A stretch of DNA of 64,000 nucleotides. Source: Balanoglossus misakiensis (taxonomy: Eukaryota; Animalia; Hemichordata). Position numbers and translations under genes: made by a program. Of this stretch, positions 2,411-29,285 are shown piece by piece. Position 1 is the stretch's first letter; each line of letters opens with the position of its first letter. The notes beneath the pieces were generated by a model. The model searched no databases. It was not told where the DNA came from and saw only the letters and a list, made by a program, of their open reading frames with translations. The stretch is taken from the NCBI GenBank assembly GCA_040954595.2, contig CM082583.2, forward strand, positions 3,915,060-3,979,059. Direction: 5' to 3'.

Positions 2411-5400
2411 ATGTATTCCCTGGCAAGTCTCGGCTTTATGTTGCTATATGCTGTTTATATTCCTATGTCGCAACAAGGTAAGTGTAGGGAAGACACAGGG
2501 ACTAGAACCTACCCTTAAACGATGTTTTGTTATTTTACGGTATTTCTGTGGCCTTTATCCTGTGTAATATAGACGTGTGCAGTTTAGGTAGATGTCATAT
2601 GGATTTTCTGTGCTAACATGGGATATTTTTTATATTGAAGCGATAATTTGACATTTTCTTTTTTTGATGATTTTTCATACAACATCTCAAGAAATTGCTC
2701 TTAAATTTATTGTGAATGTATACAGGCATGCATGTCTCTTAAATGCACATTACAATCATTGCACAGTTAACAATATCCGAATATTTTTTGTGGTGTTGAA
2801 ATTAATTTTGAGAATGCACTTATGTGATGGCTTTCATATTGTGTTTACCGGGTCCCACTTATATTCTTGTGACTTGCCAATATTATTGTAACCAACATAC
2901 TGTATACGGGAGCAATATTGCTAAAAATCCCTTGTCTGATTGCTTTGTGATTTGATTTTAGGGTCATCGGATTTCCCTCATTACCTTTTTGCCAAAATTG
3001 TCGTGGAAATATTAATTTTTGTACTTCTTCCTGATTTGTGGTCAAAAACTCAAAATGGCTTGCCGAAATTTTGTTTTAGGGTCCTTGGGTATTCGTACAG
3101 AGAGCAAACAAATCACTTCGTCAATCCCATGACCATAACATAAGCGAAGCAAATATATTTGCCTCAAAACGTTTGTAATAGTCTTCTCTCGGCTGACCTA
3201 AATATATGACCCTAACGATGCGTTAAGAGAGTGTTTCCTAGACTTGTCCATAAACCTCCAAAACATTACAACATTCAACGTCTCTTGAAATAATTGTACT
3301 GCTTACCAGTTGCTTTCCATCCACATTGCAAACTCTCAATATTGTGTTCCAACGTCATAGGTTTGTTTTATTCTATTTCTTTTTGTCAGAATGCGTAGTG
3401 AGACACTTCCTGAGAAATGGTGAGGCGGTTCGACTTAGTCATCCAAACTATACGTATGTTTACTTCTATGTTATGTGTACTTGGATAATGAAGAATGCCG
3501 ATGGTGGAATTATAAAGATCTGCTTCAGGGATTTCGAGTTTGAATCGCAAGGTGACTTCCTTATAGTCGGAGACGGCGATAACACTAAATCCAGTCAGAG
3601 GAACACATATATGTACAATGATAGCATCCCCGGCATCTTTGTATCGTCAGGAAATCAAGCTTGGATAGATTCGTCGTCGAGTCGAAGAAATAATGCACGA
3701 GGATTTCGTGTGACTGTAACTGCATTGGAAAGTGAGTATCAAGCGTTCCATTTCAATTATATCCCAATCCCAGGGGGATCGTGATCTCCCAAACCAAATA
3801 ATGACAGTGATGATGACGATTAGATATTAAAAAGAAAGAAAAATAAAAACATTTCGAACCCTACGTCGAATATTACCACTTCCGATGTTTGCTACATTTT
3901 GTAGGTGTATGTTCGGTGATGAAAACAAACGTTTGTGCATTATGATGCTGCCCCCTTTTAAAAGTAATGTTAAACCTAATTGAATCATTCTCCTCTACCC
4001 TAACCCTATAATCATGAATCGTTCTACCCCCACCCTAACCCTATAATCATGAATCGTTCTACCCCCACCCTAACCCTATAATCATGAATCGTTCTACCCC
4101 CACCCTGACCCTATAATCATGAATCGTTCTACCCCCACCCTGACCACAACCCCACCTGACAACAACATACAACATGGTCAACAACAACAGCGACAAAAAT
4201 CCCTATGTAAATACTACTATTAATTATGCAAATTTCAAATTAAAAATTGTCAATGATCTCCATAATGTTACGTCTACAAAGAAAACCTAAATAGGAGTCT
4301 TTTGATGAAAACAAGTCTCCTAACATATGTACCAAAGGTTTTCCTGGCTATCATTTATCTGAAAATCTGTTCCCGAGGCTTAATATGATACGTGTAGAAG
4401 ATGGTATACAAGCATGAGTGTTACAATAAAGTCACCCAATGATTTTTTGTTTCATATAAATATATGTACAAAGAAACCTACTCAATGTTGGCTTGAAGGT
4501 TACACCTACATTAAAATCTACTGGATTGAATGTCCGAAGATTTTCTGACATAAGCATAATGTCATGCGTAATTTTCTCACTTGTACAATATAAATATTCT
4601 TCATCAGTGACGTGCGTTAAAAGCCCAACATTCAGATATGCCCAGGGCACTATACTCGCTGCTATACTTTTGTACCATCATTTCTGTACATTTCTCCAAA
4701 AAACATTTTTCTACTTTGTCACAGAGATATTAAAGGGACAAGGTCTCTCTCTCACTGCCCTTGTTCCATTAATTATGTTTGATACAAGACACTGTTTATG
4801 TTAATGTACATGTGTGTATGTAGTGAATCAACATTCAACCACATACAACTTCCACCTCCCTTGTATTATATGAGAGTAAAAATATGCCCAAAATGAATAA
4901 ATGGTAGACACTGATTATTCATTTTGGCAAGTTTTTTCATTCTCACGTCTACAAGCGGGATGGTAGCAGTGTGTGATTCACTATATATCTACATGTACAT
5001 TAACATAAGTGGTGTCTTGTATCAAACATAATTAATGGAAAAAGGTCAGCAAGAGAGAGACTTTGTCCCTTTAATGATTATATTTGGTCTTGTTTGCATC
5101 GCATTTATCATGTAGGTGCTGCAATTCCTGTGGACGCATGTCCAACTACATCAGGTGTAAGTATTAAAACCAAACACGTGACAGTTGAAAGGAATTCTAA
5201 TTAAAATTGCAACAAGTGAGCTTTAGAACACGCTCCTCTGACGAGCGAATGCATGGGAGCGTTGTTCAAAGGAATATAGTTATTAACCACAATAAGTTAC
5301 CCTGCAAAGTTGAGATCAAGGCAATACATATTTGTCAATATATATCCGCGCGAAAGACGTGCGCCATGACATGGTCATTCGATGACTTAGACTTGCCCTG

Positions 5401-8400
5401 TCGTCATATATAAGCATACATGTATGTAGATTTCAGGTTAACGTATTTTTAAGGACTCTGGAAGTAAAATAAATTGGAATAAATTAGGAAATATACAGTG
5501 CACTGCAAAGGAGGGATGTTTTTACATCAGCAAAACACACGGGAGATGGTCCAATACACCATTAACAGTCCATATCAAACACACTGCACTGCATTGGTTA
5601 GATTCTGCTTTGCACACAAGGCATCTGCTGTTTAAAGAGAACGTGCATGTCACTGGCAAGAAAATCAAATTTATGTTTTAAACAGTAGGAATCCATACAG
5701 TGTCTGAATTCCCCCAAGTTCCCCCTAAAACCGACTGTGCGCACGCTAGTCTGTAATACCGTTATAAAATGCACATGGCACGGCCTAATATATAAATAAC
5801 AACTTTGAATTGGTGCGTGAGTAACCCGATGTGAAGTAACGGGCCAGCTATCGGTACATTACTGCATGTTTTCATCATTTGAGAATGGCTTGAAATTAAT
5901 GCATGTTAAAATTCACAAACTCGGACAAATATGTGTTGTGTATCTGTTCTAAAGTCAAAATGAACTACCTAATCCTTTATTGCGTCATTTCTTGACTCCG
6001 ATAGGCGCTTGGAAAGTTTAGTCAAGCATCTGACTTGATCGGGCGACTAGAAGATGCAAATCCGCCTTTAAGGGCAACCCAAGCATTGGCTAAAGGCAAG
6101 CGATTACACATTTCCGAGAAATAATAGACGATCCAGTTTGCGATGACCAGCCGTTGGAGACTTTGCAATTAACATATATTTGAACAGCACGTGTTAGTCC
6201 TTGGTCGAAGTGATGCCAGATCAATAATTAATTTATGAATAGCATTAATGTACCGTGTGGTTGTCTACCTCTTTGCTTACAGGCCAGGGAGGAAACGCTT
6301 TTTCAAATATATGCACGATATGGACTATATTTTAGAAAAGAAATTACTACTCATTCTGCTTTTCATGATAAAAGTTCAATTCTAAATCTTACAGAGATCC
6401 TGATACTTCTGGATGAAGGCATCGTGTTAATTCAGTCGCCGGTCAGTAATGAAACAAGAGACGAGTTGACCAAGTTCCTTCTAAACACAACCGATTCCCT
6501 CGCCAAGTCTGTTCTAAGCAAGGTGGAACCCGGCAGCGGGCCAGTTACCATGGATTCAGAATTCTTTCAATTGCATTTGGAAAGCGATTCTGTGGTGCAT
6601 CTTACAAACACCTCAATAATACTCCGAGGCGGTAATGGTGTGAAATTTCCACCGGCAGAGAAGATGTTCTCCAATTTAACTTCTGGAGCAATTGTTAACA
6701 GGATTGTAAGAGTCTTACCCTTGTTGTTCATCATAAATATGTTATTTCTTCCATCTTTGTTAATTACTTAATCACACTTTGTAAACACATGCCAATAAAG
6801 TTTATAATGTGTTATCGCCCATAGGTTAATGTTTTCAACAGAAGTTTGCTTCTTCCAGACTACAATGGAAGGAACACATTTTCAAGAAAATTTGTGTTGA
6901 GCTTGTCGTTCACTGACAGAGAAGGCAGAGAGTTAGAAGGTATTTATATCATCACAACGCGGTCATTTAATTGCCTTGTCTTAAAGAGGAACTTTGACCA
7001 ATTAGTTTTGTGCACGAAAGATTTCGTTTTCTATAATGATTTACATATTTTCTATTGACTCTTCCAGTGAAGGATACAAAAGAAGACATTGAAATCACGT
7101 TTGCAAGTGAAGCCCCAGAGTCAGAAACCGCCTCATTAATCGAAGCTGTGTACATTGAAGCCCGTGACGTCACATATTTTGGATTTAATGTCGAGGTAGG
7201 TGAATGGAATTAAAACTAGTTAAATTATGTGTGATGAGCTATTAATTATGTCTACTTCTTTGTGCTATCGGCGAGCCAATACCAACAGATTATAACAGAG
7301 GAAAGGAAACACGCGGGGAGTGGAGTTAAACACTTGCTCAAATAATTTATGTCCGTGTTCATATTTATCACAAAATTAATATTCATTCTATATTCTATGT
7401 CGCAGATAACATGGTTGTTACATCCAATTATCATTAAGTTTGAAAATTGCGAACCTCTGTACGGAAATACAACAGTGTACGTCTTCAATGAACTTACGGC
7501 TTACTCTGACAAATACGTTGGATACCAGTTCGCTGTTGATATGGAATTTGCAGGAGATTATTCCTCGGTGTTCATTCCAGAAAATTATTTCTTTAGAACT
7601 GGAGAGTATTATTTCACATTTACTGTTCCCCACAGTAAGTGTTCCTGTTTAATATTTACCTTTCACCTCACTTAAGTGTTGTACACACATATCGTTTAAA
7701 GCACATTTAATGCTGTATCGTCATGCATTATTTTGATTTGTTTGCAAGTTCAAACTTAACTAATTATATTGGAACCTATAGTATTATTTGTATCAGAACC
7801 TATTTATTTTAATTCACGTAGTAAGAAAGTCCGAACTTCTAGGCCAAAATGGGTCCACATTCTGGTATTAACAGTCGACGTGACCACCATGTCGAAAAGA
7901 ACACAGCTTCTTTGAGATTCATTAACTTTTTTTGTATTCTTTCGATTTTGTAGAGCAAGATATCCAGTTTGCATTCACTGTCATACTAACTACGTGTTAT
8001 TATCTGAACATCCAGACTGACAGTTGGAAGAGTGGCGGTTGCCAGGTATACACAATGGTTCCTCAAATGATAATTTTGATTTAGCAGAATCAAATTTGTT
8101 GAAACCTTACCCTAGTTTAACCACGGATACTCCAGCATAACCTTGATTTAACGTATCGTCTGGATACGACAAAACTGAAAGAGTATAGCAGGAGAAAATT
8201 GAGAACTTGGTTAATCTTTGTCATATTCGTCGCTCAGATTCAAATGGCAGATGAGGAATGTTCAGTTATGTTCGAATGTATTTGTCTGGAGATTCCTTGA
8301 TAGGCAGGATATGTTGCAATGTCCAAGGGGTTATTATCCCGATATTCTTTATATTTAGATAAACTCTTATCCATTTTACCACCATTGTTTGGTCCAAACC

Positions 8401-8827
8401 CATTGATTTCTATGGTAAAGATTGATGTCTAATATTAAAAAGGGAAATGCGTGCCTTATAGTCTACTGGCTATACCGACATATACTAGAGAGTTTCTGTG
8501 AAATATGCGCCTGTGATCATTTTGATGATAATGAAGTCAAAATGCACAATCCTGAAACACTTGCGAAATGGTTGGTAGCAATGATATCATTGCTCATAAA
8601 TATTTAAATATTTTTGCAACCGTTATCCCAATCAAATCAGTCTGAGCTTTAATTGTTTCTCGCATAGCAGAGTGGAAGTAAAGTTCTGGCTCGGGAGACT
8701 GAACCAATCCGTGCTTCTTTTAAATCTGCAGGTTTCACCATCATCAAACTTCACGTCCACTGTGTGCCTGTGTAACCACCTGACGACATTTGCATCCAGA
8801 AAGGCGACAACAATGATATTACCCTAG
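2411..8827 (+). CDS. Secreted CUB + polycystin-type GAIN/GPS domain protein, copy 1 (10 exons, 503 aa, no TM segment)
   Basis: Hand-spliced exons, all phase-compatible: 2411-2477 (MYSLASLGFMLLYAVYIPMSQQ, signal-peptide-like), 3390-3731 (CUB: C..SHPNY..CTW..I.F.DF..DFL.V.DG..RGFRV), 5116-5156, 6005-6095 (GC donor), 6395-6705, 6825-6939 (VLSLSFTDREGRELE), 7068-7195 (VKDTKEDIEITF), 7406-7634, 7954-8045 (CYYLNIQTDSWKSGGCQ), 8732-8827 (VSPSSNFTSTVCLCNHLTTFASRKATTMILP*). Total 1512 nt with no stop. The C..W...GC / C.CNHLT.FA pattern is the GPS motif of PKD1-like proteins and adhesion GPCRs. Confidence 0.85.
3997..4145. repeat. 35-bp minisatellite (CCCTAACCCTATAATCATGAATCGTTCTACCCCCA), about 4 units, intron 2 of copy 1
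   Basis: Direct tandem repeat read from the sequence; about 1.5 units in copy 2 (~12868-12915). Confidence 0.9.
4734..5070. mobile_element. ~340-bp foldback MITE with TTAA target duplication (Kolobok-like non-autonomous), family A
   Basis: TTAA|AGGGACAA...TTGTCCCT|TTAA with long internal inverted symmetry. Copy 3 has the empty site with a single TTAA (~24765). Confidence 0.85.
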
Positions 8828-10511
8828 AAAACGATTGCCAACATGCTAATCCAGGATGCATTGCGATTTCCAACATGGCGGCGAACCCACAAAGCCCTCT
8901 TCATTGAATGCAGACTGACCATATAAACAGAATTGGATTTTTATCATAGGAAACCGATGGCCAGAGTTAATCAACCATACTCAATTCCTCTTAACTATAT
9001 TCACACAAATCTTATTATAGACAATGTCCCTACAACTTCATTCAGAACCAACCATGCCAGAGAAAAACATCATCCCTCTTTTCTATGGAGTCTAACGTGA
9101 GTTCTAACATGCCATAAGTAATGTCTTAAAGATAACTTGAATTCTTTGTTTACCACAGATGTAAATCTTTATGATGCAAGTAAATGTATACAAAAGAAAA
9201 AATGTAATTACAGTGTAGTTTTTTTTTAAATTTAAATTTAAATACAATAATTATTATGTGGGTTTCCATGTATCTCGTGCTTATGAATGTTAGATGTCGA
9301 TGTCAAATTAAATCATTGTATTTACATATTTACACATTTAACTCAATTATACATTTAGTAATCTATTATTGTGAATTCTTGTATTTTTACAGTCACACAT
9401 TTACAAAAATATACCTCTTTTGTCGTCTGAAGTACTTTCGTTTTGAAATCTTTGTAAGATAAAATATTTGCATGCAATCCTTCTGTCAAAACCAACTTTG
9501 TCTGATTAATATGTGTCTGCAATGATTTAAGTGGTATTGTATTATCAAACGTAGATATTTGATGACAATTGATAACGAAATTCAGATAATTATATCTTAA
9601 AATACCTATATCGGACATTATTAAATGCTCAATCAAAAGCATGTTTTGTACTGCTCAGATGAAATGAATAATAAAAATACTACAGAAATAAATGCGAGTC
9701 TTTAATTGGTCCTTTTCAACCTTAATTAATCAGTGAAGTTTTTTTAAACATGTAGTACAACGTGGTAGATCGTGCACGTTCACTCTATGTATTGGATGCG
9801 ATGTCGATCGACATTCTGTATGCTCTGATGTTTATCCTGTTAGGCCTTACCCTCTGGTGTTGCTGACATTAATTATTTAAGCGCTATCTCTTTCAAAGTC
9901 AAATTTCCCCCGGCTATGTGTGTCGCTCGGTATAAGTGTGTCTTTCTTTTTCATCTTGCAGGCCTATTCCTCAGTTGTATAATAATCATAAACTCCGTGG
10001 GGAGTGTGATTCTTTCTTTAGGAGACGCCTTCAGTTCTCTTTGTGTTCTGACAGTTGGTAAACGCTATTTCAATGCCCCTCACCCTGTCTATAGAGTTTG
10101 AAAAGTTCAGTTTGATATTAAGTATTTATAAAAGTTTCCACTTCATGCTACGGAGCCAAATAATATAATTAGTTTATGATTTTTGAGTAATAAAATCGAC
10201 AGCTCATTGTACTAATTCGCATGTTTACTGTACATTCACGACAGTTTGGTATTTAAATTTAAAGTTGTACGTGTCATTGTATTTCAAATAACAAAATACT
10301 ATCACTTTTTCAAGTTAACTTTATAGCTGCAAATTTGCGGTACGGTATATAAACAGTGATTGATTTACCTTCTGAACTTGTTAAACGTGGGGGGGGGGGG
10401 GGGTTCATTTTTTGCGTGCAACATATGCTGTCTTTATACACTCTCATTTCTGCATCTCCCCTGCATCATTCACATGAATTCTCTGTTTTGAAAAGTTTTA
10501 ACAAAACTTAA

Positions 10512-11331: not shown

Positions 11332-14300
11332 ATGTATTCCCTGGCAAGTCTCGGCTTTATGTTGCTATATGCTGTTTATATTGCTATGTCGCAACAAGGT
11401 AAGTGTAGGGAAGACACAGGGACTAAAGCCTACCCTTAAACGATGTTATGTTATTTTACGGAATTTCTGTGGCCTTTATCCTGTGTAATATAGACGTGTG
11501 CAGTTTAGGTAGATGTCATTTAGATTGTCTGTGCTAATATAAGATATTTTTTATATTGTAGCGATAATTTGACATTTTCTTTTTTTGATGATTTTTCATA
11601 CAACATCTCAAGAAATTGCTCTTAAATTTATTGTGAATGTATACAGGCATGCATGTCTCTTAAATGCACATTACAATCATTGCACAGTTAACAATATCCG
11701 AATATTTTTTGTGGTGTTGAAATTAATTTTGAGAATGCACTTATGTGATGGCTTTCATATTGTGTTTACCGGGTCCCACTTATGTTCTTGTGACTTGCCA
11801 ATATTATTGTAACCAACATACTGTATATGTGAGCAATATTGCCAAAAATCCCTTGTCTGATTGCTTTGTGATTTGATTTTAGGGTCATCGGATTTCCTTC
11901 ATTACCATTTGCCAAAATTGTCGTGGAAATATTAATTTTGTACTTGTGGACAATTCTTCCTGATTTGTGGTCAAAAACTCAAAATGGCTTGCCGAAATTT
12001 TGTTTTAGGGTCCTGGGGTATTCGTACAGAGAGCAAACAAATCACTACGTCAATCCCATGACCATAACATAAGCGAAGCAAATATATTTGCCTCAAAACG
12101 TTTGTAATAGTCTTCTCTCGGCTGACCTAAATATAGGACCCTAACGATGCGTTAACATTACAACATTCAACGTCTCTTGAAATAATTGTACTGCTTACCA
12201 GTTGCTTTCCATCCACATTGCAAACTCTCAATATTGTGTTCCAACCTCATACGTCTGTTGTATTATATTTCTTTTTGTCAGAATGCGTAGTGAGACTCTT
12301 CCTGAGAAATGGTGAGGCGGCTCGGCTTAGTCCTCCAAACTTTACGTATGATCACGACTTTTTTGCGTGTACTTGGATTATGAAGAATGCCGATGGTGGA
12401 ATTATAAAGATCTGCTTCAATGATTTCGAGTTTGCCTCGCAAGATGACTTCCTTATAGTCGGAGACGGCGAAAAAACTAAATCCAGTCAGGTGAACACAT
12501 ATTTGTACAATGATAGCATCCCGGGCATCTTTGTATCGTCAGGAAGACAAGCTTGTATACGTTCGCCGCCGATTCGAAGAAATAAGGCACGAGGATTTCG
12601 TGTGACTGCAACTGCATTGGAAAGTGAGTATAAAGGGTTCCATTTCAATTATATCCCAATCCCAGGGGGATCGTGATCTCCCAAACCACATAATGACAGT
12701 GATGATGACGATTAGATATTAAAAAGAAAGAAAAATAAAAACATTTTGAACTCCACGCCGAATATTACCACGTCTGATGTATGTTCAGTGATGAAAACAA
12801 ACGTTTGTTCATTATGATGCTTCTCCCCTTAAATAGTAATGTTAAACCTAATTGAATCATTCTCCTCTACCCTAACCCTATAATCATGAATCGTTCTACC
12901 CCCACCCTAACCACAACCCCACCTGGCAACAACATACAACATGGTCAACAACAACAGCCACAAAAATCCCTCTGTAAATACTACTATTAATTATGCAAAT
13001 TTCAAATTAAAAATTGCCAATGATCTCCCTAATGTTACGACTACAAAGAAAACCTAAATAGGTGTCTTTTAATGAAAACAAGTCTCCTAACATATGTACC
13101 AAAGGTTTTCCTGGCTATCATTTATCTGAAAATATGTTCCCGAAGCTTAATATGATACGTGTAGAGGGTGGTATACAATGGTAATTGCAAACACACATGC
13201 TTGCGTGAGTGTTATAATAAAGTCACCCAATTACTGTTTTTAGGTCCCATTGGTATGTACCATGGGACCTTATGGGATCGGTTGCGTCTGTATGTATGTA
13301 TGGATGGATGTATGAATGGATGTATGTCTGTATGTACGTCCACATCAAAAACTTGAAAACCGCTGCGCGTATGACCTCGATATTTGGTGTGTAGATGAAG
13401 GCAGGGCTGTAGATGGGAGTTTGTTCAAATGAAGTTGTCATTGCCAAAAATATGCAAATTAGCTGGGAAAATGTGAAATTGGTCAAAACTCAAAAACTCA
13501 ACAACAACTGGTCATATTGATTTGAAAATTGGTATGCATGTACCTTATGTCAACCTCATACAGTCCTGTATGTTTTTAGCTAATATTATTGATTTCCTAT
13601 TTTTTATGCATTTTTTTGTATTTTTCCATGTTATTGGTAAAAAGTCTTCATTACTAATTCATTCCTGAAAGTGATGGGATTACTTCTTTCAAATTTAGTA
13701 TGAAGCTTCCTAATGGTTGTCTGAGTAACCATAGTTTTGTTCAAATTGTTGCAAAATTCGCATATTTATAATTTTGAGCAATATTTGCCATTTTTGGTCA
13801 AATTTTTTTCTCTTTAAAACCGCATGCCAGATTGCTTTGCAATTTGGTAGGCATGTTCGTAGGGGTAACCTAAGTAATATGTTGTAAAAAATGTGATATT
13901 TTCATAAATGTGTTATCGGGGAAACTTTTGCAATTTTTGTCAAAAATTGTTTTCTCTGAAACCGCTTGTCATATTGCATTGAACTTTGGCAGCATGTTCC
14001 TTGTAGTGATTGAAGTAAGATATTGTACAATTTTGGTGATATTTGCATATTTGTGTTTTTGCCACTTTTGAACAAATATTTTTTGTGAAACTGCTTGTTG
14101 GGTTGCTTTGACATTTGTTTTTTCTCTGATTGCTTTGAAATTTAGGATATAATTTGATAATACATACATGTATATTTGCAACTTTTAATTAATTCTGATA
14201 CCAGAAATATTCAATATTTAGCGAGTTTTTTTGTAAGTTTCTTTGTTTTTGGTTAGCAAATCTTCTCCTAAACCAATTGTCCAGTTTTTAAAGTTACTGT

Positions 14301-17300
14301 TTACAAGGAGTTGTTACCCCCAACTTAGACATGTTTACATAACTTTAATAAGCCAGCTGTTACAGAGACCACGGGCTATTAAATGTTTAATTACCAGTGG
14401 CAGGTCCGTGTGTGTGTGTCTGTCTGTCTGTCTGTTCCAGGGCTGACAGGATGAAGTTGCTTCCTATGTGTTTGTACAGACAATTTTTGGTCAATTTTTT
14501 TTCTAGCACCACTTGTAAGACTGCCATGACACATGACAGTTTATTGGGCATGTTCCTTGTTAATTTGTTTACATTCCATATTTCTGTATCGTAAGATCAT
14601 ATCTGCTTGCAATGTCACCTGTAATTTTTTTCTGGTGTGTCACTGTTTCCGCATAATCCTCAAATGGGACCACAGTGTCCTAGACGCTATTTTTTATATA
14701 AATTTATGTACAAAGAAACCTACTCAACGTTGGCTTGAAGGTTACACCTACATTAAAATCTACTGGATTGAATGGCCGAAGATTTTCTGACATAAGCATA
14801 ATGTCATGCGTACTTTTCTCACTTGTACAATATAAATATTCTTCATCAGTGACGTGCGTTAAAAGCCCAACATTCAGATATGCCCAGGGCACTATACTCG
14901 CTGCTATACTTTTGTACCGTCATTTCTGTACATTTCTACTCAAAACATTTTTCTACTTTGTCACGGAGATATTAAAGGGACAAGGTCTCTCTCTCATTAA
15001 AGGGACAAGGTCTCTCTCTCACTGCCCTTGTTCCATTAATTATGTTTGATACAATGTAGTGAATCAACATTCAACCACATACAACTTCCACCTCCCTTGT
15101 ATTATATGAGAGTAAAAACTTGCCCAAAATGAATAAATGGTCGAGACTGATTATTCATTTTGGCAAGTTTTTTCATTCTCATGTCTACAAGCGGGATGGT
15201 AGCAGTGTGTGGTTCACTATATATCTACATGTACATTAACATAAGTGGTGTCTTGTATCAAACACAATTAATGGAAAAAGGTCAGCAAGAGAGAGACTTT
15301 GTCCCTTTAATGATTATATTTGGTCTTGTTTGCATCGTATTTATCATGTAGGTGCTGCAATTCCTGTGGACGCATGTCCAACTACATCAGGTGTAAGTAT
15401 TAAAACCAAACACGTGACAGTTGAAAGGAATTCTAATCAAAATTGCAACAAGTGAGCTTTAGAACACGCTCCTCTGACGAGCGAATGCATGGGAGCGTGG
15501 TTCAAAGGAATATAGTTATTAACCACAATAAGTTACCCTACAAAGTTGAGATCAAGGCAATACATATTTGTCAATATATATCCGCGCGAAAGACGTGCGC
15601 CATGACATGGTCATTCGATGACTTAGACTTGCCCTGTCGTCATATATAAGCATATATGTAGATTTCAGGTTAACGTATTTTAAGGACTCTGGAAGTAAAA
15701 CAAAATTGGAATAAATTAGGAAATATACAGTGCACTGCAAGGGAGGGATTTTTTTACATCAGCAAAACACACGGGATATGGTCCAATACACCATCAACAG
15801 TCCATATCAAACACACTGCACTGCATTGGTTAGATTCTGCTTTGCACACAAGGCAACTGCTGTTTAAAGAGAACGTGCATGTCACTGGCAAGAAAATCAA
15901 ATTTATGTTTTAAACAGTAGGAATCCATACAGTGTCTGAATTCCCCCAAGTTCCCCCTAAAACCGGCTGTGCGCACGCTAGTCTGTAATACCGTTATAAA
16001 ATGCACATGGCACGGCCTAATATATAAATAACAACTTTGAATTGGTGCGTGAGTAACCCGATGTGAAGAAACGGGCCAGCTATCGGTACATTACTGCATG
16101 TTTTCATCATTTGAGAATGGCTTGAAATTAATGCATGTAAAAATTCACAAACTCTGAAAAATATGTGTTGTGTATCTGTTCTAAAGTCAAAATGAACTAC
16201 TTAATCCTTTATTGCGTTATTTCTGGACTCCGATAGGCGCTTGGAAAGTTTAGTCAAGCATCTGACTTGACCGGGCGACTAGAAGATGCAAATCCGCCTT
16301 TAAGGGCAACCCAAGCATTGGCTGAAGGCAAGTGATTACACATTTCTGAGAAAAAGTATAGACGTTCTAGTTTGCGATGACCAGCCGTTGGAGACTTTGC
16401 AATTAACATATATTTGAGCACCACGTGTTAGTCCTTGGTCGAAGTGATGCCAGATCAATAATTAATTTATGAATAGTATTAATGTACCGTGTGGTTGTCT
16501 ACCTCTTTCCTTACAAGCCACGGGAGGAAACGCTTTTTCAAATATATGGACTATATTTTAGAAGGGAAATTGTATACTACTCATTCTGCTTTTCATGATA
16601 AAGGTTCAATTTCAAATCTTACAGAGATCCTGACACTTCTGGATGAAGGCATCGTGTTAATTCAGTCGCCGGTCAGTAATGAAACAAGAGACGAGTTGAC
16701 CAAGTTCCTTCTAAACACAACCGATTCCCTCGCGAAGTCTGTTCTACGCGGGATGAAACCCGGCAGAGGGCAAGCTACCATTGATTCAGAATTCTTTCAA
16801 TTGCATTTGGAAAGCGATTCTGTGGTGCATCTTACAAACACCTCAATAATACTCCGAGGCGGTAATGGTGTGAAATTTCCACCGGCAGAGAAGATGTTCT
16901 CTAATTTAACCTCTGGAGCAATTGTTAACAGGATTGTAAGAGTCTTACCCTTGTTGTTCATTATTTTATTTCTTCCATTTTTTCTACTTATAATCAGACT
17001 TTGTAAACACATGCCAATGAAGTTTATAATATATTATCGCCCATAGGTTAGTGTTTTTAACAGAAGTTTGCTTCTTCAAGACGACAATGGAAGGAACACA
17101 TTTTCAAGAAAATTTGTGCTGAGCTTGTCATTCACTGACAGAGAAGGCAGAGAGTTAGAAGGTATTTATATCATCACTGTAATATATTTTAATCATTTAT
17201 ATCGAAATGAGGCCGGAATTGTAGCAATAGGCTGTTTGTTGTTACCAAATATTAAATGCTTGTCATAGAAAACAATGTTCATCCAAATACCCGATCCAAC

Positions 17301-19220
17301 ACAACGCGGTCATTTAATTGCCTTGTCATAAAGAGGAGCTTCCACCAATCAGTTTTGTGCACGAACGATTTCGTTTTCTATATGATTAACATCTGCATAA
17401 ACGTTATTTTCTATTCACTCATCCAGTGAAGGATACAAAAGAAGACATTGAAATCACGTTTGCAACTGAAGCCCCCGATTCAGAAACCGCCTCATTAATC
17501 GAAGCTGTGTACATTGAAGCCCGTGACGTCACATATTTTGGATTTAATGTCGAGGTAGGTGAATGGAATTAAAACTAGTTAAATCAAGTGTGATGAGCTA
17601 TTAATTATGTATACTGCTTTGTGCTATCGGCGAGCCAATACCAACAGATTATAACAGAGGAAAGGAAACACGCGGGGAGTGGAGTTAAACACTTGCTCAA
17701 ATAATTTATTTCCGTGTTCATATTTATCACAAAATTAATGTTCATTCTATATTCTATGTCGCAGATAACATGGTTGTTCCATCCAATTATCATTAAGTTT
17801 GAAAATTGCGAACCTCTGTACGGAAATACAACAGTGTACGTCTTCAATGAACTTACGGCTTACTCTGACAAATACGTTGGATACCAGTTCACTGTTGATA
17901 TGGAATTTGCAGGAGATTATTCCTCAGTGTTCATTCCAGAAAATTATTTCTTTAGAACTGGAGAGTATTATTTCACATTTACTTTTCCCCACAGTAAGTG
18001 TTCCTGTTTAATATTTACCTTACACCTCACTTAAGTGTTGTACACACACGTCGTTTAAAGCACATTTAATGCTGTATCGTCATGCATTATTTTGATTTGT
18101 TTGCAAGTTCAAACTTAACTAATTATATTGGAACCTATAGTATTATTTGTATCAGAACCTATTTATTTTAACTCACGTAGTAAGAAAGTCCGAACTTCTA
18201 GGCCAAAATGGGTCCACATTCTGGTATTAACAGTCGACGTGACCACCATGTCGAAAAGAACACATCTTCTTTGAGATTCATTAACTTTTTTGCATTCTTT
18301 CGATTTTGTAGAGCAAGATATCCAGTTTACATTCACTGTCATACTAACTACGTGTTATTATCTGAATATCCAGACTGACAGTTGGAAGAGTGACGGTTGC
18401 CAGGTATACACAATGGTTCCTCAAAAGATAATTTTGATTTAGCAGAATCAAATTTGTTGAAACGTAACCCTAGTTTAACCACGGATACTCCAGCATAACC
18501 TTGATTTAATGTATCGTCTGGATACGACAAAACTGAAAGAGTATAGCAGGAGAAAATTGAGAACTTGGTTAATCTTTGTCGTACTCGTCGCTCAGATTCA
18601 AATGGCAGATGAGGAATGTTCAGTTTATGTTCGAATGTATTTGTCTGGAGATTCATTGATAGGCAGGATATGTTGCAATGTCCAAGGGGTTATTATCCCG
18701 ATATTCTTTATATTTAGAAAAAACTCTTATCCCTTTCACCACCATGGTTTGGTCCAAACCCATTGATTTCTATGGTAAAGATTGATGTCTAATATTAAAA
18801 AGGGAAATGCGTGCCTTATAGTCTACTGGCTAGAAGAGCAATATAATACCGACATATACTAGAAAGTTTCTGTGAAATAGGCGCCTGTGATCATTTTGAT
18901 GATAATGAAGTCAAAATGCACAATACTGAAACACTTGCGAAATGGTTGGTAGGTAATTAAATTAGCTTTTTCCAATGATATCATTGCTCATAAATATTTA
19001 AATATTTTTGCAACAGTTTCCCATTCAAATCAGTCTGAGCTTTAATTGTTTCTCGCATAGCAGAGTGGAAGTAAAGTTCTGGCTCGGGAGACTGAACCAA
19101 TCCGTGCTTCTTTTAAATCTGCAGGTTTCACCATCATCAAACTTCACGTCCACTGTGTGCCTGTGTAACCACTTGACGACATTTGCATCCAGAAAGGCGA
19201 CAACAATGATATTACCCTAG
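11332..19220 (+). CDS. Secreted CUB + GAIN/GPS protein, copy 2 (10 exons, 503 aa)
   Basis: Exons 11332-11398, 12282-12623, 15352-15392, 16237-16327, 16625-16935, 17047-17161, 17427-17554, 17765-17993, 18312-18403, 19125-19220. Exon lengths are identical to copy 1, splice sites are intact, the frame is open and it ends CNHLTTFASRKATTMILP*. Confidence 0.85.
13238..14690 (+). mobile_element. ~1.45-kb Helentron/HINE (DINE-1-like) non-autonomous element, copy 2 only
   Basis: Absent from copies 1 and 3. It has a 5' stem-loop GGTCCCAT..ATGGGACC followed by a (TATG/GATG) microsatellite, a 3' subterminal ATGGGACC plus a small hairpin AGTGTC-TAGACGCT, and is inserted in a T-run with no clear TSD. The class assignment rests on architecture only. 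Confidence 0.65.
14976..15306. mobile_element. Family A MITE in copy 2, with tandem duplication of the left terminus
   Basis: Same site as the element at 4734. TTAAAGGGACAAGGTCTCTCTCTCA occurs twice in tandem (14972-15021). Confidence 0.85.
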
Positions 19221-20806
19221 AAAACGATTGCCAACATGCTAATCCAGGATGCACTGCGATTTCCAACATGGCGGCGAACCCACAAAGCCCTCTTCATTGA
19301 ATGCAGACTGACCATATAAACAGAATTGCTTTTTTATCATAGGAATCCGATGGATTGGCCATTAATAGGCCTCCAGAGTTAATCAACCATACTCAATTCC
19401 TCTTTACTATATTCACACAAATCTTATTATAGACAATGTCCCTACAACTTCATTCAGAACCAACCATGCCAGAGAAAAACATCATCACTCTTTCTATGGA
19501 GTCTAACGTGAGTTCTAACATGCCATAAGTAATGTCTTAAAGATAACTTGAATTCTTTGTTTACCACAGATGTAAATCTTTATGATGCAAGTAAATGTAT
19601 ACAAAAGAAAAAATGTAATTAGGTTTTTTTTTTAATTTAAATTTAAATACAGAATTATTATGTGGGTTTCCATGTATCTGGTGCTTGTGAATGTTAGATG
19701 TCGATGTCAAATTAAATCAATGTATTTACACATTTAACTCAATTATACTTTTAGTAATCTATTATTGTGAATTCTTGTATTTTAACAGTCACACATTTAG
19801 AAACATCTACCCCTTTTGTTGTTTGACGTAATTTTGTTTTGAAATCTTTGTAAGATATAATATTTGCATGCAATCCTTCTGTCAAAACCAACTTTGTCTG
19901 ATCAATATGTGTCTGAAATGATTTAAGTGGTATTGGATTATCAAACGTAGATATTTGACGACAATTGATAACGAAATTAAGATAATTATATCTTAAAATA
20001 CCCATCGAACATTTATTAAATGCTGAATCAAAAACATGTTTTGTACTGCTCAGATGAAATGAATAAAATACTACAAAAATAAATGCGAGTCTTTAATCAA
20101 TCCTTTTCTACCTTAATTAATCAGTTAAGTTTTTCAATTAATATAAAGTACAACGTGGAAGATCGTGCACGTTCACTCTATGTATTGGATGCGATGTCGA
20201 TGGACATTCTGTATGCTCTGATGTTTATCCTGTTAGGCCTTACCCTCTGGTGTTGCTGACATTAATTATTTAATCGCTATCTCTTTCAAAGTAAAAATGT
20301 CCTCCGGCTCGGTGTGTCCTTAGAACCTTTAAATATTCCATCGCTCGGGATAAGTGTGCACGTGTCTTTCCTTTTCATCTTGTAGGCCTATTCCTCAGTT
20401 GTATAATAATCATAAACTCCGTGGGGAGTGTGATTCTTTCTTAAGGAGACGCCTTCAGTTCTCTTTGTGTTCTGACAGTTTGTAAACGCTATTTCAATGC
20501 CCCTCACCCTGTCTCTAGAGTTTGAAAAGTTCAGTTTGAAATTAAGTATTTATAAAAGTTTCCACTTCATGCTACGGAGCCAAATAATATTAATATTTTA
20601 TGATTTTTGAGCAATAAAATTGACAACTCATTGTATTAAATAGCATGTTTACTGTACATTCACGACAGTTTGGTATTTAAAGTTGTACGTGTCGTTGTAT
20701 TTCGAATAACAAAATATTATCACTTTTTTCAAGTTAACTTTACAGCTGCAAAATTGCGGTACGGTATATAAACAGTGATTGATTTCATACCTTCTGAACT
20801 CGTTAA

Positions 20807-21228
20807 ACCCCGGTGCGGAAAGTACCGGGGTTCGGATTAACGTGTGTTTGTCTTGTTGTTTATTGACTGTGTAATTGAGCTCTTGGACATAGAAAATAAT
20901 TGAACACTTTACACCTCTACGCGATTGACAGCTGTTTGAATGGCGGGGTTGTTGTTTCCCAGGGACGCTTCTGAAAAGCACTGAAACCAGATTTCTGCCA
21001 AAATCATCGTTGTTTCAAAAGCTCGTGTACTTTTTCGTCGATAACTTTATTTTGTGTGTGTTTATAAAGCCAACTACTGTCGTTGTGTGGTGTAATTCTT
21101 TATGCTTGGACCTGTTTGGGCGGATTTTCATAGAGCCAAGATCGTTGGTGTTGTCTATTGTCAGTCAAACGGCATTAAGATTAATTCGCCACTGATTTGG
21201 GGGGGTCTTTTATACCCCGCACCAAGGT
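20807..21228. mobile_element. ~420-bp TTAA-flanked MITE, copy 3 only
   Basis: TTAA|ACCCCGGTGCGG...CCGCACCAAGGT|TTAA. The empty site GTTAAACGTGGGG is at 1821 and 10380. Confidence 0.8.
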
Positions 21229-21797
21229 TTAAACGTGGGGGGGGGGGGATTTCATTTTCTGCGTGCAACTTATCTGCTGTCTTTATATACTCTCATTTCT
21301 GTATCTCCCCTGCCCTTTTTTCGTCGCCATTCACATGAATTCTTTGTTTTGAAAAGTTTTAACAAAACTTAATTCACTTAATAACGAAACGTCTGACATC
21401 ACTTTTCTGGTCTTTTTTTGAAGTCCGTATATACATGTACATTGTATCTTTTTTGTGTGTGTTTTGTGAATTGGCTGTACTGTGCTCTTTTGTAACTGTT
21501 CGTCCTTGCAACTGACAATACAAACACCGTTTATTTGACCTAAACGTAAGCTAAAGAATATGAATGGGTATGATCTAAATTATTTAGTACATTATTTCTA
21601 TACATGTACATGTCTTTCATCAGACATTGGGGAATATTTGGGAATATGTACTTTCATGCATGTCATATTTCAATTCAACTGAACATCTGCTATTCACAAG
21701 TGTCCTTGTTCTTGTCTCTGTGGCAACACTGGTATCGATAAAAGTGTAAGTTTCTAACTCTCTAGATCACAACGAGACTTGATCGGAAACATTGAAT

Positions 21798-24700
21798 ATG
21801 TATTCCCTGGCAAGTCTCGGCTTTATGTTGATATATGCTGTTTATATTGCTATGTCGCAACAAGGTAAGTGTAGAGATGACACAGGGACTAAAGTCTACC
21901 CTCAACGATGTTATTTGTGGTGTTAAAATTAATTTGAGAATGTACTTATGTGATGGCTTTCATATTGTGTTTACCGGGTCCCAGTTATGTTCTTGTGACT
22001 TGCTAATATTATTGTAACCAACTTACTGTATATGGGAGCAATATTGCGCAAACATTTCCAGAAATCCCTTGTCTGATTGCATTGTGATTTGATTTTAGGG
22101 TCATCGGATATCCTTCATTACCATTTGCCAAAATAGTCGTGGAAATATTAATTTTGTACTTGCGGCCAATTCTTCCTGATTTGTGGTCAAAACTCGAAAT
22201 GGCTTGCCGAAATTTTGTTTAAGGTCCTGGCGTATTGCACTGTTTACCAGTTGCTTTCCATTTACATTGCAAACTCTCAAAATTGTGTTCCAACCTCAAA
22301 ATTCTGTTGTATTATATTTATTTTGTCAGAATGCGAAAAAAGACACTCCCTGAGAAATGGTGAGGCAGTTCGACTTAGTCCTCCAAACTACCCGTATGAT
22401 TACGACAACAATCTTGAGTGTACTTGGATCATGAACAACACCGATGGCGGAATTATAAAGATCTGCTTCAGGGATTTCGACTTGGCCTCGCAAGATGACT
22501 TCATTACAGTCGGAGGCGGCGAAAAAACAAGTCCCAGTCAAGTAAAAACATATTTGTACGATGATAGTATCCCCGGCATCTATATATCGTCAAGAAATCA
22601 AGCTTGGATATACTTGTCGACAAGTCGAAATACTGCACGAGGATTTCGTGTGACTGCAACTGCATTGCAAAGTGAGTACCAAATTTTCCATTTCAATTAT
22701 CTCCCAATCCCAGAGGGATCTCGATCTCCCAACCAAAATAACAACAGGATTATGATGACGATTAGATATTACAAAGAAAGAAAAATAAAAACATTTCGAA
22801 CCCTACTTCCGATGTTTGCTACATTTTGTAGGTGTATGTTCGGTGATGAAAAAAAAAGTTTGTTCATTATGATGCGTCGCCCCTTTAATAGTAATGTTAA
22901 ACCTAATTGAATCATTCTCCCCTACCCTAACCCTATAATCATGAATCGTTCTACCCCCACCCTAACCCTATAATCATGAATCGTTTTACCCCACCCTAAC
23001 CCTATAATCATGAATCGTTCTACCCCCACCCTAACCCTATAATCATCAATCGTTCTACCCCCACCCTAACCCTATAATCATGAATCGTTCTACCCCACCC
23101 TAACCCTATAATCATGAATCGTTCTACCCCCACCCTGACCACAACCCCACCTGAGAACAACATACAACATGGTCAACAACAACAGCCACAAAAATCCCTA
23201 TGTAAATACTATGACAGCACTTCATGACCTCTGCGCGCGATCTGTGCAATATGGATGTTATTTTCATGAGTGATAAGGTGTATTGTTCCGAGTATACGGA
23301 TCGCGCGCAGAGGACATGAAGTTCTGTTATTATTGCATATGTTTCCCTAGATTTGACGAAAATCAAAGTTTCGATCGTGGCGTATTGATTTTCACTACAG
23401 TGATGCGCCAAAGGCTTTGCAACCCAGAGAAGGCCGCTCATTGGCCAAAATGAAGCAACCTTTGTTATGCAAAGAAGGGTCATGTGGGGTCATTCCATCA
23501 GTGGGTTACCTGAGGTCGTGAGATCGCAGCGATACATTTTGAAACACTGGCGATAGCGAGAGATTTTCGTAATTTTCGAGGTTCCAAAACACACTGACAA
23601 CTAAATGTTCTGTTATTCTGACGATAGGTGGAAAGGATAAGAAAACAACGTGCCAGAATGTTGAAAAATCCGCATGTTTCGGCGATCATGTTGGCTCATT
23701 TCATCAGTGGTTTAGCTCAGGTCGCAAGATAGCATCGGCAATATTTGAGAAACTGGCGATAGCGAGGGATTTTCCGAGGTTCCCAAACATACTGCCAATG
23801 AATGTTTTGTTATTCTGACAAAATTTGGGAAGGATAAGACAATGACGTCTCCGAATGTTGAAAATTCCCCACGTTTCGGCGATCATACTCCAGCTCTGCC
23901 GACGGCGTTCAATGTTTACAAACAAAACGTAGTTCGGCTTGTTTTTACTCATTTGCATATGGGTTGTGAAAAATACCACTTTGTCACGCGCACAACTAAA
24001 ACAACATTCGACATTTTTGCGACTGAAATAAAACTTTTGTTATATCCTCCGGAGGTTTATATGAACTCCAAGTGATTGTGTAACAGAACGAGGGTTAAAC
24101 TTTGACAGATATACGATCGATTGAAGGGGAAATGGGGGATCTTATTCTTCTGGATGCTAATTTGCATATCAGCTTGCAAAAAAAAAAAAAACAGTATTAT
24201 TATTGCACGGGCAGCTTGGAATACTGTAGTACATATGCAATACTACTATTAATTATGCAAATTTCAAATTAAAAATTGTCAATGATCTCCATAATGTCAC
24301 GTCTACAAAGACAACCTAAATAGGTGTATTTTGATGAAAACAAGTCTCCTCACATATGTAGCAAATGTTTTCCTGGCTATCATTTATCTGTTCCCGAGGC
24401 TTAATATGATACGTGTAGAGGGTGGTATACAAGGGTAATTGCAAACATACATGCTTGCATGAGTGTTATAATAAAGTCACCCAATGATTGTTTGTTTTTT
24501 ATAAATATATGTACAAAAAACTACTCAACGTTGGCATGAATGTTAACTCTACTGGATTGAATGACCAAAGATTTTCTGACATACATGTAAGTGTACGTTT
24601 GCGTACTTTTCTCACTTGTACAATATAAATATTCTTCATCAGTGACGTGCGTTAAAAGCCCAACATTCAGATATGCCCAGGGCACTATACTCGCTGCTAT

Positions 24701-27700
24701 ACTTTTGTACCGCCATTTCTATACATTTCTTCCAAAAACATTTTTTCTACTTTGTCACAGAGATATTAAGGATTGTATTTGGTCTTGTTTGCATCGTATT
24801 TATCATGTAGGTTCTGCAATCCCTGTGGACGCATGTCCAACTACATCAGGTGTAAGTATTAAAACCAAACACGTGACAGCTGAAAGGAGTTCTTATTAAA
24901 ATTGCAACATAGGATCACAGCCCTATACAACGACTTGCTGCATTTTTTGCAGCCCCTCCGGCAACCCGCACGCTCCGCGTATAAAAAAACAAAAATCGTC
25001 AAGGGGAGCCGGAGGGGGTGTAAAACTGCAGCAATACGATGACTTGCTTAGTTCTGGTTACCTTTGGGCATGTGAGCTTCGGAACACGCTCCCCTGACGA
25101 GTGAATGCATGGGAGCATGGTTCAAAGGAATCACAATAAGTTGCCCTTCAAAGTTTAGATCACGACAATATATTTGTCAATCATGTCATTATGTATCCGC
25201 GCGAAAGACGTGCTCCATCACATGGTCATTCGATGACTTAGACTTGCATGTAGTTTGAAATTAATGCATGTTAAAACTCACAAACTCTGACAAATGTGTG
25301 TTGTTTATATGTTCTAAAGTCAAAATGAACTACCTAATGCCTTATTGTGTCATTTCTGGACTCCGATAGGCGCTTGGAAAGTTTTCTCAAGCATCTGCCA
25401 TGACCGAGGGACTAGAAGATGCAAATCCGCCTTTAAGTGCAAGTCAAGCATTGGCTAAAGGCAAGCGATTACAAATTTCTGGGAAATAATAGACGTTGCG
25501 ATGACCAGACGTTGACTTTGACTTTGCAATTAACGTATATATTTGAACACCACGTGTTATATTAGTCATTGGTCGAAGTGATGCCAGATCAATAATTAAT
25601 TTATGAATAGTATAAATGTTCCGTCTACTTGTCTACCTTTTTCCTTACAATCCACGGGAGAAAGCGCTTTTTCAAATATATGGACTATATTTTAGAAGGG
25701 AAATTGTATACTACTCATTCTGCTTTTCATGATAAAGGTTCAATTCCAAATCTTACAGAGATCCTGACACTTCTGGATGAAGGCATCGTGTTAATTCAGT
25801 CGCCGGTCAGTAATGAAACAACAGACGTGTTGACCAAGTTCCTTCTAAACACAACCGATTCCCTCGCGAAGTCTGTTCTACGCGGGATGGAACCCGGCAG
25901 AGGGCCAGTTACCATTGATTCAGAATTCTTTCAATTGCATTTGGAAAGCGATTCTGTGGTGCATCTTACCAACACCTCGATAATACTCCGAGGCGGCAAT
26001 GGTGTGAAATTTCCACCGGCAGAGAAGATGTTCTCCAATTTTACTTCTGGAGCAATTGTTAACAGGATTGTAAGAGTGTTACCCTTGTTGTTCATCATTT
26101 TATTTCTTCCATCTTTGTTATTTTACTTATAATCACTGAACACATGCCAATAAAGTTTATAATATATTATCGCCCATAGGTTAATGTTTTCAACAGAAGT
26201 TTGCTTCTTCAAGACGACAATGGAAGGAACACATTTCCAAGAAAATTTGTGTTGAGCTTGTCGTTCACTGACAGAGGAGGCAGAGAGTTAGAAGGTATTT
26301 ATATCATCACAACGCGGTCATTTAATTGCCTTGTCTTAAAGAGGAACTTTGACCAATTAGTTTTGTGCACGAAAGATTTCGTTTTCTATAATGATTAACA
26401 TATTTTCTATTGACTCTTCCAGTGAAGGATACAAAAGAAGACATTGAAATCACGTTTGCAAGTGAAGCCCGAGAGTCAGAAACCGCCTCATTAATCGAAG
26501 CTGTGTACATTGAAGCCCGTGACGTCACATATTTTGGATTTAATGTCGAGGTAGGTGAATGGAATTAAAACTAGTTAAATCAAGTGTGATGAGCTAATTA
26601 TGTATACTGCTTTGTGCTATCGGCGAGCCAATACCAACAGATTATAACAGAGGAAAGGAAACACGCGGGGAGTGGAGTTAAACACTTGCTCAAATAATGT
26701 ATTTCCGTGTTCATATTTATCAAAAATTAATATTCATTCTATATTCTATGTCGCAGATAACATGGTTGTTCCATCCAATTATCATTAAGTTTGAAAATTG
26801 CGAACCTCTGTACGGAAATACAACAGTGTACGTCTTCAATGAACTTACGGCTTACTCTGACAAATACGTTGGATACCAGTTCACTGTTGATATGGAATTT
26901 GCAGGAGATTATTCCTCGGTGTTCATTCCAGAAAATTATTTCTTTAGAACTGGAGAGTATTATTTCACATTTACTTTTCCCCATAGTAAGTGTTCCTGTT
27001 TAATATTTACCTTACACCTCACTTAAGTGTTGTACACACACGTCGTTTAAAGCACATTTAATGTTGTATCGTCATGCATTATTTTGATTTGTTTACAAGT
27101 TCAAGCTTATCTAATTATATTGGAACCTATAGTATTATTTGTATCAGAACCTATTTATTTTAATTCACGTAGTAAGTCCGAACTACTTGGCCAAAATGGT
27201 TCTATATTTTGGTAATTAAGAGTCGACGTGACCACCATGTCGAAAAGAACACAGCTTCTTTGAGATTCATTAACTTTTTTGTATTCTTTCGATTTTGTAG
27301 AGCAAGATATCCAGTTTACATTCACTGTCATACTAACTACGTGTTATTATCTGAATATCCAGACTGACAGTTGGAAGAGTGATGGTTGTCAGGTATACAC
27401 AATGGTTCCTCGAAAGATAATTTTGATTTAGCAGAATCAAATTTGTTGAAACGTAACCCTAGTTTAACCACGGATACTCCACCATGACCTTGATTTAATG
27501 CATCCTGTAGATACGACAAAAACTCAAAGAGTAAGAGCAGGAGAAAATTGAGAACTTGGTTAATCTTTGTCATATTCGTCACTCAGATTCAAATGGCAGA
27601 TGAGGAATGTTCAGTTATAATACCGACATGTACTATAGAGTTTCTGTGGAATAGGCGCCTGATCCTTAAACCATTGGTGATTATTTTGATGATAATGTAG

Positions 27701-28011
27701 TCAAAATGCACAATACTGAAACACTTGCGAAATGCTTGGTAGCTAATTAAATTAGCTTATTCCAATGATATCGTTGCTCATAAATATTTAAATATTTTTG
27801 CAACAGTTTCCCATTCAAATCAGTCTGAGCTTTAATTGTTTCTCGCATAGCAGAGTGGAAGTAAAAGTTCTGGCTTGGGAGACTGAACCAATCCGTGCTT
27901 CTTTATAATCTGCAGGTTTCACCATCATCAAACTTCACCTCCACTGTGTGCCTGTGTAACCACCTGACGGCATTTGCATCCAGAAAGGCGACAACAATGA
28001 TATTACCCTAG
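21798..28011 (+). CDS. Secreted CUB + GAIN/GPS protein, copy 3 (10 exons, 503 aa)
   Basis: Exons 21798-21864, 22330-22671, 24811-24851, 25370-25460, 25759-26069, 26180-26294, 26423-26550, 26757-26985, 27301-27392, 27916-28011. This copy has the most canonical CUB motif (LSPPNYPYDYDNNLECTW) and ends CNHLTAFASRKATTMILP*. Confidence 0.85.
22925..23140. repeat. Same 35-bp minisatellite, about 6 units, intron 2 of copy 3
   Basis: Direct tandem repeat; unit number differs among paralogues. Confidence 0.9.
23212..24240. mobile_element. ~1.03-kb non-autonomous insertion with a large 5' hairpin and an internal ~205-bp duplication, copy 3 only
   Basis: Absent in copies 1 and 2. AATACTA lies on both sides. 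There is a hairpin ACTTCATGACCTCTGCGCGCGATC...GATCGCGCGCAGAGGACATGAAGT, and an internal TATTGCATATGT pairs with the terminal ACATATGCAATA. Confidence 0.7.
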
Positions 28012-29279: not shown

Positions 29280-29285
29280 AATAAA
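29280..29285 (+). terminator. Putative polyadenylation signal AATAAA of CUB-GAIN copy 3 (homologous sites at 1082, 9670, 20062)
   Basis: AATAAA sits at the same position in all four 3'-UTR-like blocks, and homology of the last block ends about 15 nt downstream of it. Confidence 0.45.

Follow-up and report, generated by a model that had tools for sequence, protein, structure and literature searches.

A tandem array of acorn-worm genes predicted to encode membrane-less polycystin-type GAIN proteins

Can a GAIN domain with its GPS cleavage site be the end of a protein rather than the prelude to a membrane receptor? In a review, GAIN domains are reported only in the polycystin-1 and adhesion G protein-coupled receptor (GPCR) families, ahead of a membrane helix (PMC9672506). 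The question is raised by a tandem array in the acorn worm Balanoglossus misakiensis (assembly GCA_040954595.2, contig CM082583.2, positions 3,915,060 to 3,979,059, forward strand; these 64,000 nucleotides (nt) are called the window below), whose genes join a hydrophobic start, a CUB head and a GAIN domain and stop just past the GPS. We conclude that the three copies are very probably real secreted members of a larger family. More tentatively, at a little under an even chance in our estimate, they may be self-cutting, membrane-less polycystin-1-type ectodomains that act on membrane polycystin channels.

Three genes ending at the GPS

Self-BLAST of the window revealed three tandem units of about 9-10 kb each, whose 3' block occurs a fourth time where the window begins. 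All three genes lie on the plus strand: copy 1 at 2411..8827 (exons 2411-2477, 3390-3731, 5116-5156, 6005-6095, 6395-6705, 6825-6939, 7068-7195, 7406-7634, 7954-8045 and 8732-8827), copy 2 at 11332..19220 (exons 11332-11398, 12282-12623, 15352-15392, 16237-16327, 16625-16935, 17047-17161, 17427-17554, 17765-17993, 18312-18403 and 19125-19220) and copy 3 at 21798..28011 (exons 21798-21864, 22330-22671, 24811-24851, 25370-25460, 25759-26069, 26180-26294, 26423-26550, 26757-26985, 27301-27392 and 27916-28011). Exon sizes are identical in all three (67, 342, 41, 91, 311, 115, 128, 229, 92 and 96 nt) and sum to 1512 nt, giving a protein of 503 amino acids (aa) per copy with zero internal stops. Self-BLAST and these translations confirmed the original prediction, made from the sequence alone, of three intact 10-exon genes without frameshifts. 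All acceptors are AG and all donors GT, with the sole exception of GC after the 91-nt exon 4; this GC-AG intron, at 6096, 16328 and 25461, is common to copies 1, 2 and 3.

Exon 1 (2411..2477, 11332-11398 and 21798-21864) encodes a start that is signal-peptide-like by hydropathy, with an in-frame TGA 6 codons 5' of the ATG. Exon 2, a single phase 1-1 exon, encodes the CUB head (Pfam PF00431) at 3390..3731 in copy 1 (E 8.5e-10), at 12282..12623 in copy 2 (E 1.1e-5; 78% aa identity to copy 1) and at 22330..22671 in copy 3 (E 2.6e-13; 68-69% aa identity to copies 1 and 2, with two one-codon indels). Sequence comparison assigns exons 4-10 (6005..8827, 16237-19220 and 25370-28011) to a GAIN domain with a helical subdomain, a beta subdomain carrying an inserted sandwich, and the GPS, the second half of which is exon 10; for exon 10 of copy 1 the Pfam GPS family scored above its cut-off (E 1.8e-5). 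C456, W466, C471, C484 and C486 and the cleavage-type triad H488-L489/T490 are present in every copy. The stretch from the triad through a 14-residue tail to the stop spans 8777..8827, 19170-19220 and 27961-28011, so that the predicted TAG 14 codons past HL|T was found in all three.

Sequence and model comparisons identify this GAIN domain as polycystin-type, with the inserted sandwich. Its fold is taken from an AlphaFold2 model of the relative P0011, which is 46% identical to the window protein over 322 aa, and the window proteins are colinear with it. The model, based on 39 aligned sequences, reached a predicted local distance difference test (pLDDT) of 90.2 and a predicted template modelling score of 0.87. 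It shows three long helices followed by beta strands, corresponding to the helical subdomain A and beta subdomain B of GAIN domains, and an extra beta sandwich at about residues 202-318. The solved structures nearest to it were GAIN domains (Foldseek ranks 1-7), and the top nine fold matches had Z 13.1-17.2 and a root mean square deviation of 4.1-4.9 over 194-237 aligned residues; a polycystin GAIN domain was absent among these solved-structure matches. Exon 8, folded from its sequence alone, did not yield a reliable model (pLDDT 52). The Atlas model of P0003 matched PKD1L2, PLAT-bearing and REJ-like clusters with template modelling scores of 0.77-0.79 over about 225 residues, versus 0.43-0.46 over 120-126 of 242 residues, without the insert, for adhesion GPCRs. 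The best membrane-bearing match was P0039, polycystin-1-like protein 2 of Ptychodera flava (XP_070540434.1; LamG, lectin, GPS, PLAT and channel), which is colinear with the window GAIN over 353 residues at 25% identity. The family profile scored 160 bits on P0039 (positions 24-318 of 318), versus at most about 40 bits, near the GPS only, on 7TM-type rows (7TM, seven transmembrane helices).

The original prediction expected a complete GAIN fold. The fold itself is borne out by the P0011 model, but its last strand appears stalk-like in the first four residues only, and by sequence the domain is probably not fully complete. Among 31 membrane stalks, Phe occupied post-cut position 3 in 31/31 and position 7 in 23/31; these stalks were chosen by the pattern Pro-Asn-x-Ile/Val, whose positions are conserved by construction. 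In the tails of the membrane-less family that were long enough, Phe 3 was found in 15 of 17 and Phe 7 in 1 of 13, post-cut conservation ending after T-x-F-x. The window copies keep T-x-F and carry Arg-Lys at post-cut positions 6-7.

We found no exons for a membrane part between or after the copies, as predicted. The DNA surrounding and following the copies, as far as position 43,000, contains 158 stop-free plus-strand stretches of at least 35 aa; in 150 of them Pfam gave zero matches to PLAT, 7TM or PKD-channel families (the other 8 belong to the window-start block, which duplicates scanned DNA). When 48 post-GPS membrane parts of database receptors were compared with the whole window by tblastn, the only 2 matches were both to a second GPS matching exon 10. 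We considered and rejected the idea that the stop is followed by a relic of the first transmembrane helix (TM1), whether in the same frame or in another: read-through matched the GPS alone, and the tails of relatives were unrelated. The copies thus lack the TM1, PLAT and channel domains of the polycystin-1 family, and 7TM segments after the GAIN domain, typical of adhesion GPCRs, are missing from the copies, the window and 35 relatives described below. A REJ module was not detected in the copies either, in which only about 15 residues separate the CUB domain from the GAIN-aligned region. On sequence grounds we regard the copies as derived from the polycystin-1 (PKD1/PKD1L/REJ) family and not as standard members of it.

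Since our view is limited to 64 kb, one might suppose that the transcripts are spliced to membrane exons farther away and that the genes are ordinary polycystin genes. We consider this extremely improbable, because an in-frame TAG closes each gene with no consensus splice donor between the HL|T triad and the stop, the tandem unit leaves no room, the remaining 36 kb hold C1q genes and TTC21B with no membrane exons found, and 0/35 relatives have a membrane part. In the predicted proteins the sole Kyte-Doolittle 19-mer above 1.4 is the N-terminus (1.5-1.7 at residues 1-21). Secretion of the 503-aa proteins is likely; by hydropathy the N-terminal stretch may be a cleaved signal peptide or may be kept uncleaved as an anchor.

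Membrane-less relatives in acorn worms

Exon 10 as query retrieved one protein, P. flava XP_070547368.1, which is 49-51% identical to residues 260-494 and ends 10 residues past HL. A scan of 1.84 billion representatives seeded with this protein gave 106 matches, 35 of them at E<=1e-10. None of these 35 close relatives carries PLAT, channel or 7TM families or a membrane segment, and PF02010 was absent in 35/35; continuation of relatives into PLAT or transmembrane domains, which the original prediction had described as the mark of truncated pseudogene duplicates, was thus not seen in any. The GPS is reached in 23 of the 35, with the C-terminus 0-23 residues past the cleavage site (median 6; at most 2 residues past the cut in 8/23) and HL-T/S kept in 14/23. 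By contrast, 68 of the 71 weaker matches have a GPS, and 58 of these 68 continue for more than 60 residues. Six of the P. flava relatives (P0013, P0016, P0026, P0030, P0031 and P0033) have lost the cleavage triad, which implies that self-cleavage is not required family-wide.

The origin of 18 of the 35 relatives was looked up: 17 are P. flava gene models on 10 contigs and 1 is from Glandiceps talaboti. Identity to P0003 ranges from 27 to 60%. The P. flava and G. talaboti GAIN models (for example XP_070545597.1, XP_070557261.1, XP_070547368.1 and XP_077992928.1) resemble the window copies in GAIN sequence (38-53% identity to the nearest members), in ending past the GPS and in belonging to the same clade. 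They differ in carrying lectin, pentraxin/LamG, F5/8, SRCR, PAN or HYR modules instead of CUB, and are automatic annotations, mostly named 'uncharacterized'. Across the family the heads comprise C-type lectin, pentraxin/LamG, F5/8, SRCR, PAN and HYR repeats, while CUB was found in 0/35 and seen only in the window copies. The originally proposed CUB-GAIN architecture therefore holds for the copies, but CUB is just one of several interchangeable heads.

In a tree the three copies nest among 23 membrane-less database proteins, forming a 26-row clade with a support of 97 (Shimodaira-Hasegawa-like approximate likelihood ratio test, SH-aLRT), in which the members ending at the cut form deeper branches. 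This is a quick tree of 80 rows, which leaves out rows without 200 residues ahead of the GPS, leaves the sister group unsettled and does not name the donor gene. With a GAIN domain inside this clade and a C-terminus no more than 25 residues past HL, the copies belong to the acorn-worm membrane-less GAIN family. Since the 35 close relatives lack the membrane part as well, the copies did not arise by a fresh local truncation; they belong to an old family in acorn worms, which by sequence comprises dozens of predicted stand-alone polycystin ectodomain genes. Recent local truncation, as an explanation, was dropped once these relatives had appeared. The original idea of an amplified soluble module thus stands for the tandem intact copies, but their membrane part was lost long ago, and throughout the family.

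Apparently such a family in acorn worms is undescribed: our literature searches turned up no account of a gene family with membrane-less GAIN proteins, although supplements of hemichordate genome papers could mention an expansion. Word-based homolog searches returned nothing for exon 5, and for exon 2 just two multi-CUB proteins, both distant; the Atlas gave no match for exon 5, a metagenome scan no relative, and exons 5 and 8 had no meaningful sequence match in the PDB.

Selection on the copies and surroundings of the array

The introns of the copies diverge by 3.4-6.5%. From their 23-33 frame-breaking indels per pair, 7-15 frameshifts would be expected in the coding sequence of any two copies. 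On the three-copy tree, 17.9 frameshifts were expected (10.3 without homopolymers, P 3e-5), 4.2-5.6 stops (P 0.004-0.015) and 2.9 splice-site lesions (P 0.054), and none of any kind was seen. Hence the open reading frames have been kept by selection, far beyond chance. As the truncated end sits inside the repeated unit, the copies diverged after the membrane part had been lost. Frame survival and the polycystin type of the GAIN domain together support the original suggestion of a soluble, PKD1-like-derived GAIN module that has been kept intact.

Amino acid identity among the copies is 68-78% in the CUB domain and 92-94% in the remainder, and no part of the genes has changed faster than the CUB exon (copies 1 and 2 differ at 35/342 nt in this exon versus 33/1170 nt in the other exons). 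Codon likelihood gave a ratio of nonsynonymous to synonymous substitution rates (dN/dS) of 1.20 for CUB. We read the pattern as mixed, the GAIN end being under purifying selection while the head evolves rapidly. The closest pair of copies shifts along the unit, as expected from gene conversion. Neutral drift of young, non-functional duplicates would fit the whole-gene dN/dS of 0.95 and the Arg-Lys at post-cut positions 6-7, unlike membrane stalks. It is very unlikely all the same, given that none of a total of 17-26 expected frameshift, stop or splice lesions was seen, that both exonic indels are whole codons and that the four GPS cysteines and the triad are all kept.

A 3'-UTR-like block (UTR, untranslated region) follows each copy, as had been predicted: 8828..9692 in copy 1 (AATAAA pair at 9670 and 9687), 19221..20083 in copy 2 (pair at 20062 and 20078) and 28012..29298 in copy 3, all on the plus strand. 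The block of copy 3 has two insertions, and its homology to the other copies stops just past the AATAAA at 29280. The AATAAA signals are distant from the stop (+843/+860, +842/+858 and +1269, respectively). The fourth block, at 277..1827 on the plus strand, is 91% identical to that of copy 2 by self-BLAST and is likely, from its sequence, the tail of another gene copy upstream of the window; no GPS exon was found in positions 1-276. A consensus-like splice donor lies inside the block at 9097 and 19508, about 270-290 nt 3' of the stop; if used, it would leave the protein unchanged and could affect transcript stability.

Intron 2 contains a tandem repeat of 34-35 nt with a CCCTAA core (3981-4145, 12853-12912 and 22908-23140), differing in copy number per gene. 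An element of about 350 nt with inverted ends, resembling a miniature inverted-repeat transposable element, occurs in intron 2 of copies 1 and 2 (4716-5077 and 14994-15311) and at 55317-55686 and 57105-57457 inside a TTC21B/IFT139-like multi-exon gene (about 42993-62300, plus strand; Pfam ARM_TT21 families). Directly past the array, at 29607-30404, 55-nt inverted repeats enclose a DEAD/RecQ-like helicase fragment in a transposon-like arrangement. The neighbours on the minus strand are two duplicated genes of a secreted recognition type, with collagen repeats and a C1q domain (32391-34025 and 36644-38426), and an isolated match to the Deltex C-terminal domain (E 8e-14) lies at 39893-40135 on the plus strand.

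Possible action of the products

The copies share a signal start, a recognition head, a GAIN domain with the polycystin-type insert and HL|T with polycystin-1-like proteins of the PKD1L2/PKD1L3 type such as P0039. They differ from these in having a stalk of only four residues, in lacking TM1, PLAT, TOP and channel domains and in showing no detectable REJ module. The nearest case that we found described is sea urchin SpREJ10 (PMC1934368). Like SpREJ1 it is a polycystin-family ectodomain with a reduced membrane part, and SpREJ10 itself has no predicted transmembrane segment. In contrast to the copies, SpREJ10 contains a REJ domain and is without GPS, one transmembrane segment is retained in SpREJ1, 8 and 9, and all are single-copy genes. 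Adhesion GPCRs share the GAIN fold and produce soluble N-terminal fragment (NTF) transcripts (PMC6667449) and isoforms with one transmembrane helix (1-TM; bioRxiv 10.1101/2023.01.11.521585). Those are isoforms of receptor genes, whereas here entire genes are without a membrane part.

In the mechanism that we propose, the N-terminal hydrophobic stretch would route a glycoprotein with 8-9 sequons out of the cell. The GAIN domain would then fold, cut itself at HL|T and release the 14-residue tail with its degenerate anchoring positions. With the tail cleaved off, the product would equal the NTF of a normally cleaved polycystin. Across the family only the GAIN domain up to the cut stays constant; the heads are exchanged, and the tails vary freely or are missing. 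The product may thus be seen as a shed polycystin fragment that is directly encoded. Its variable head would bind an external ligand and its GAIN base would dock on a cleaved membrane polycystin, in the simplest case by taking the stalk strand of the polycystin into its own vacated slot. The copies would thereby serve as exchangeable outer subunits or soluble ligands of membrane polycystin channels.

Action on membrane polycystins is suggested by precedent, and our confidence in it is about half of that placed in the copies being real secreted family members. Reported precedents are the activation of PC-1/PC-2 by a soluble N-terminal fragment of polycystin-1 (PC-1; PMC7728438), the re-association of NTF and C-terminal fragment in adhesion GPCRs (PMC6438917), soluble-NTF transcripts for 55.6% of the tabulated mouse adhesion GPCR genes (PMC6667449) and the binding of 1-TM isoforms to the 7TM form of adhesion GPCRs (bioRxiv 10.1101/2023.01.11.521585). 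In addition, the gene pk1l2 marks the larval ciliary band of an acorn worm (PMC13554239).

Several observations weigh against this proposal. The activating part of PC-1 was tied to its lectin domain and not to GAIN (PMC7728438), and the P0011 model places the short tail as a 5-residue strand (354-358), so that the slot may stay filled. On the side of the family, 12 of the 35 relatives stop ahead of the GPS, perhaps because their models are incomplete or the genes have decayed; because the relatives are predicted gene models known as proteins only, some of their ends may be unspliced donors; and the G. talaboti evidence is a single model of 109 aa ending at HL. Constraint on the amino acid sequence is weak, and the codon data alone are compatible with neutrality: the whole-gene dN/dS did not differ from 1 (p 0.82), exons 6-10 gave 0.47 (p 0.077), and the value of 2.99 for CUB in copies 1 versus 2 (p 0.044) comes from one of 12 uncorrected tests.

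Possible, if on the doubtful side, is a channel-independent role in which the secreted proteins serve recognition in mucus, immunity or gametes, their heads binding microbes, food particles or glycans and their GAIN domain being an inherited stable base; in mucus or immunity we rate such a role as nearly as likely as action on polycystins. C-type lectin, pentraxin/LamG, F5/8, SRCR and CUB are typical recognition modules, the family is large and dispersed with many partial models, like a birth-and-death recognition family, its CUB exon is the most diverged part, and expanded clusters of secreted glycoprotein genes are known from acorn worms (PMC4729200). This leaves unexplained, however, why a full GAIN domain of about 320 residues has been kept to the cut site across members only 27-60% identical to P0003 while the remainder is free. 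The products could also be decoys that soak up putative ligands of membrane polycystins or cap the exposed stalk and so damp signalling. The head types of P0039, the nearest full-length polycystin, are LamG and C-type lectin, which the family has too, and the soluble-NTF transcripts of adhesion GPCRs fit as well; the CUB, F5/8 and SRCR heads, however, have no matched membrane partner here, and we consider decoys distinctly unlikely.

An extension of the proposed action on polycystins, which we think unlikely as a whole, is a polycystin receptor split into separate genes, with dozens of secreted head-plus-GAIN modules, some of which end right at the cut, plugging onto the exposed stalk strand of a cleaved membrane polycystin. 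If true, one channel would be served by exchangeable ligand-binding heads, a mix-and-match sensory receptor built by strand complementation. A multigene family that encodes the shed fragment only, some members of which end at the cut itself, is a natural test of whether a GAIN domain can be stable and functional when its last strand is missing, and of a second question, whether NTFs have trans effects on polycystin channels or rejoin membrane fragments other than their own. The answers to both would concern the working of human polycystin-1. In addition, the family is a source of GAIN domains of the polycystin type that are small and soluble and could be used in structural studies.

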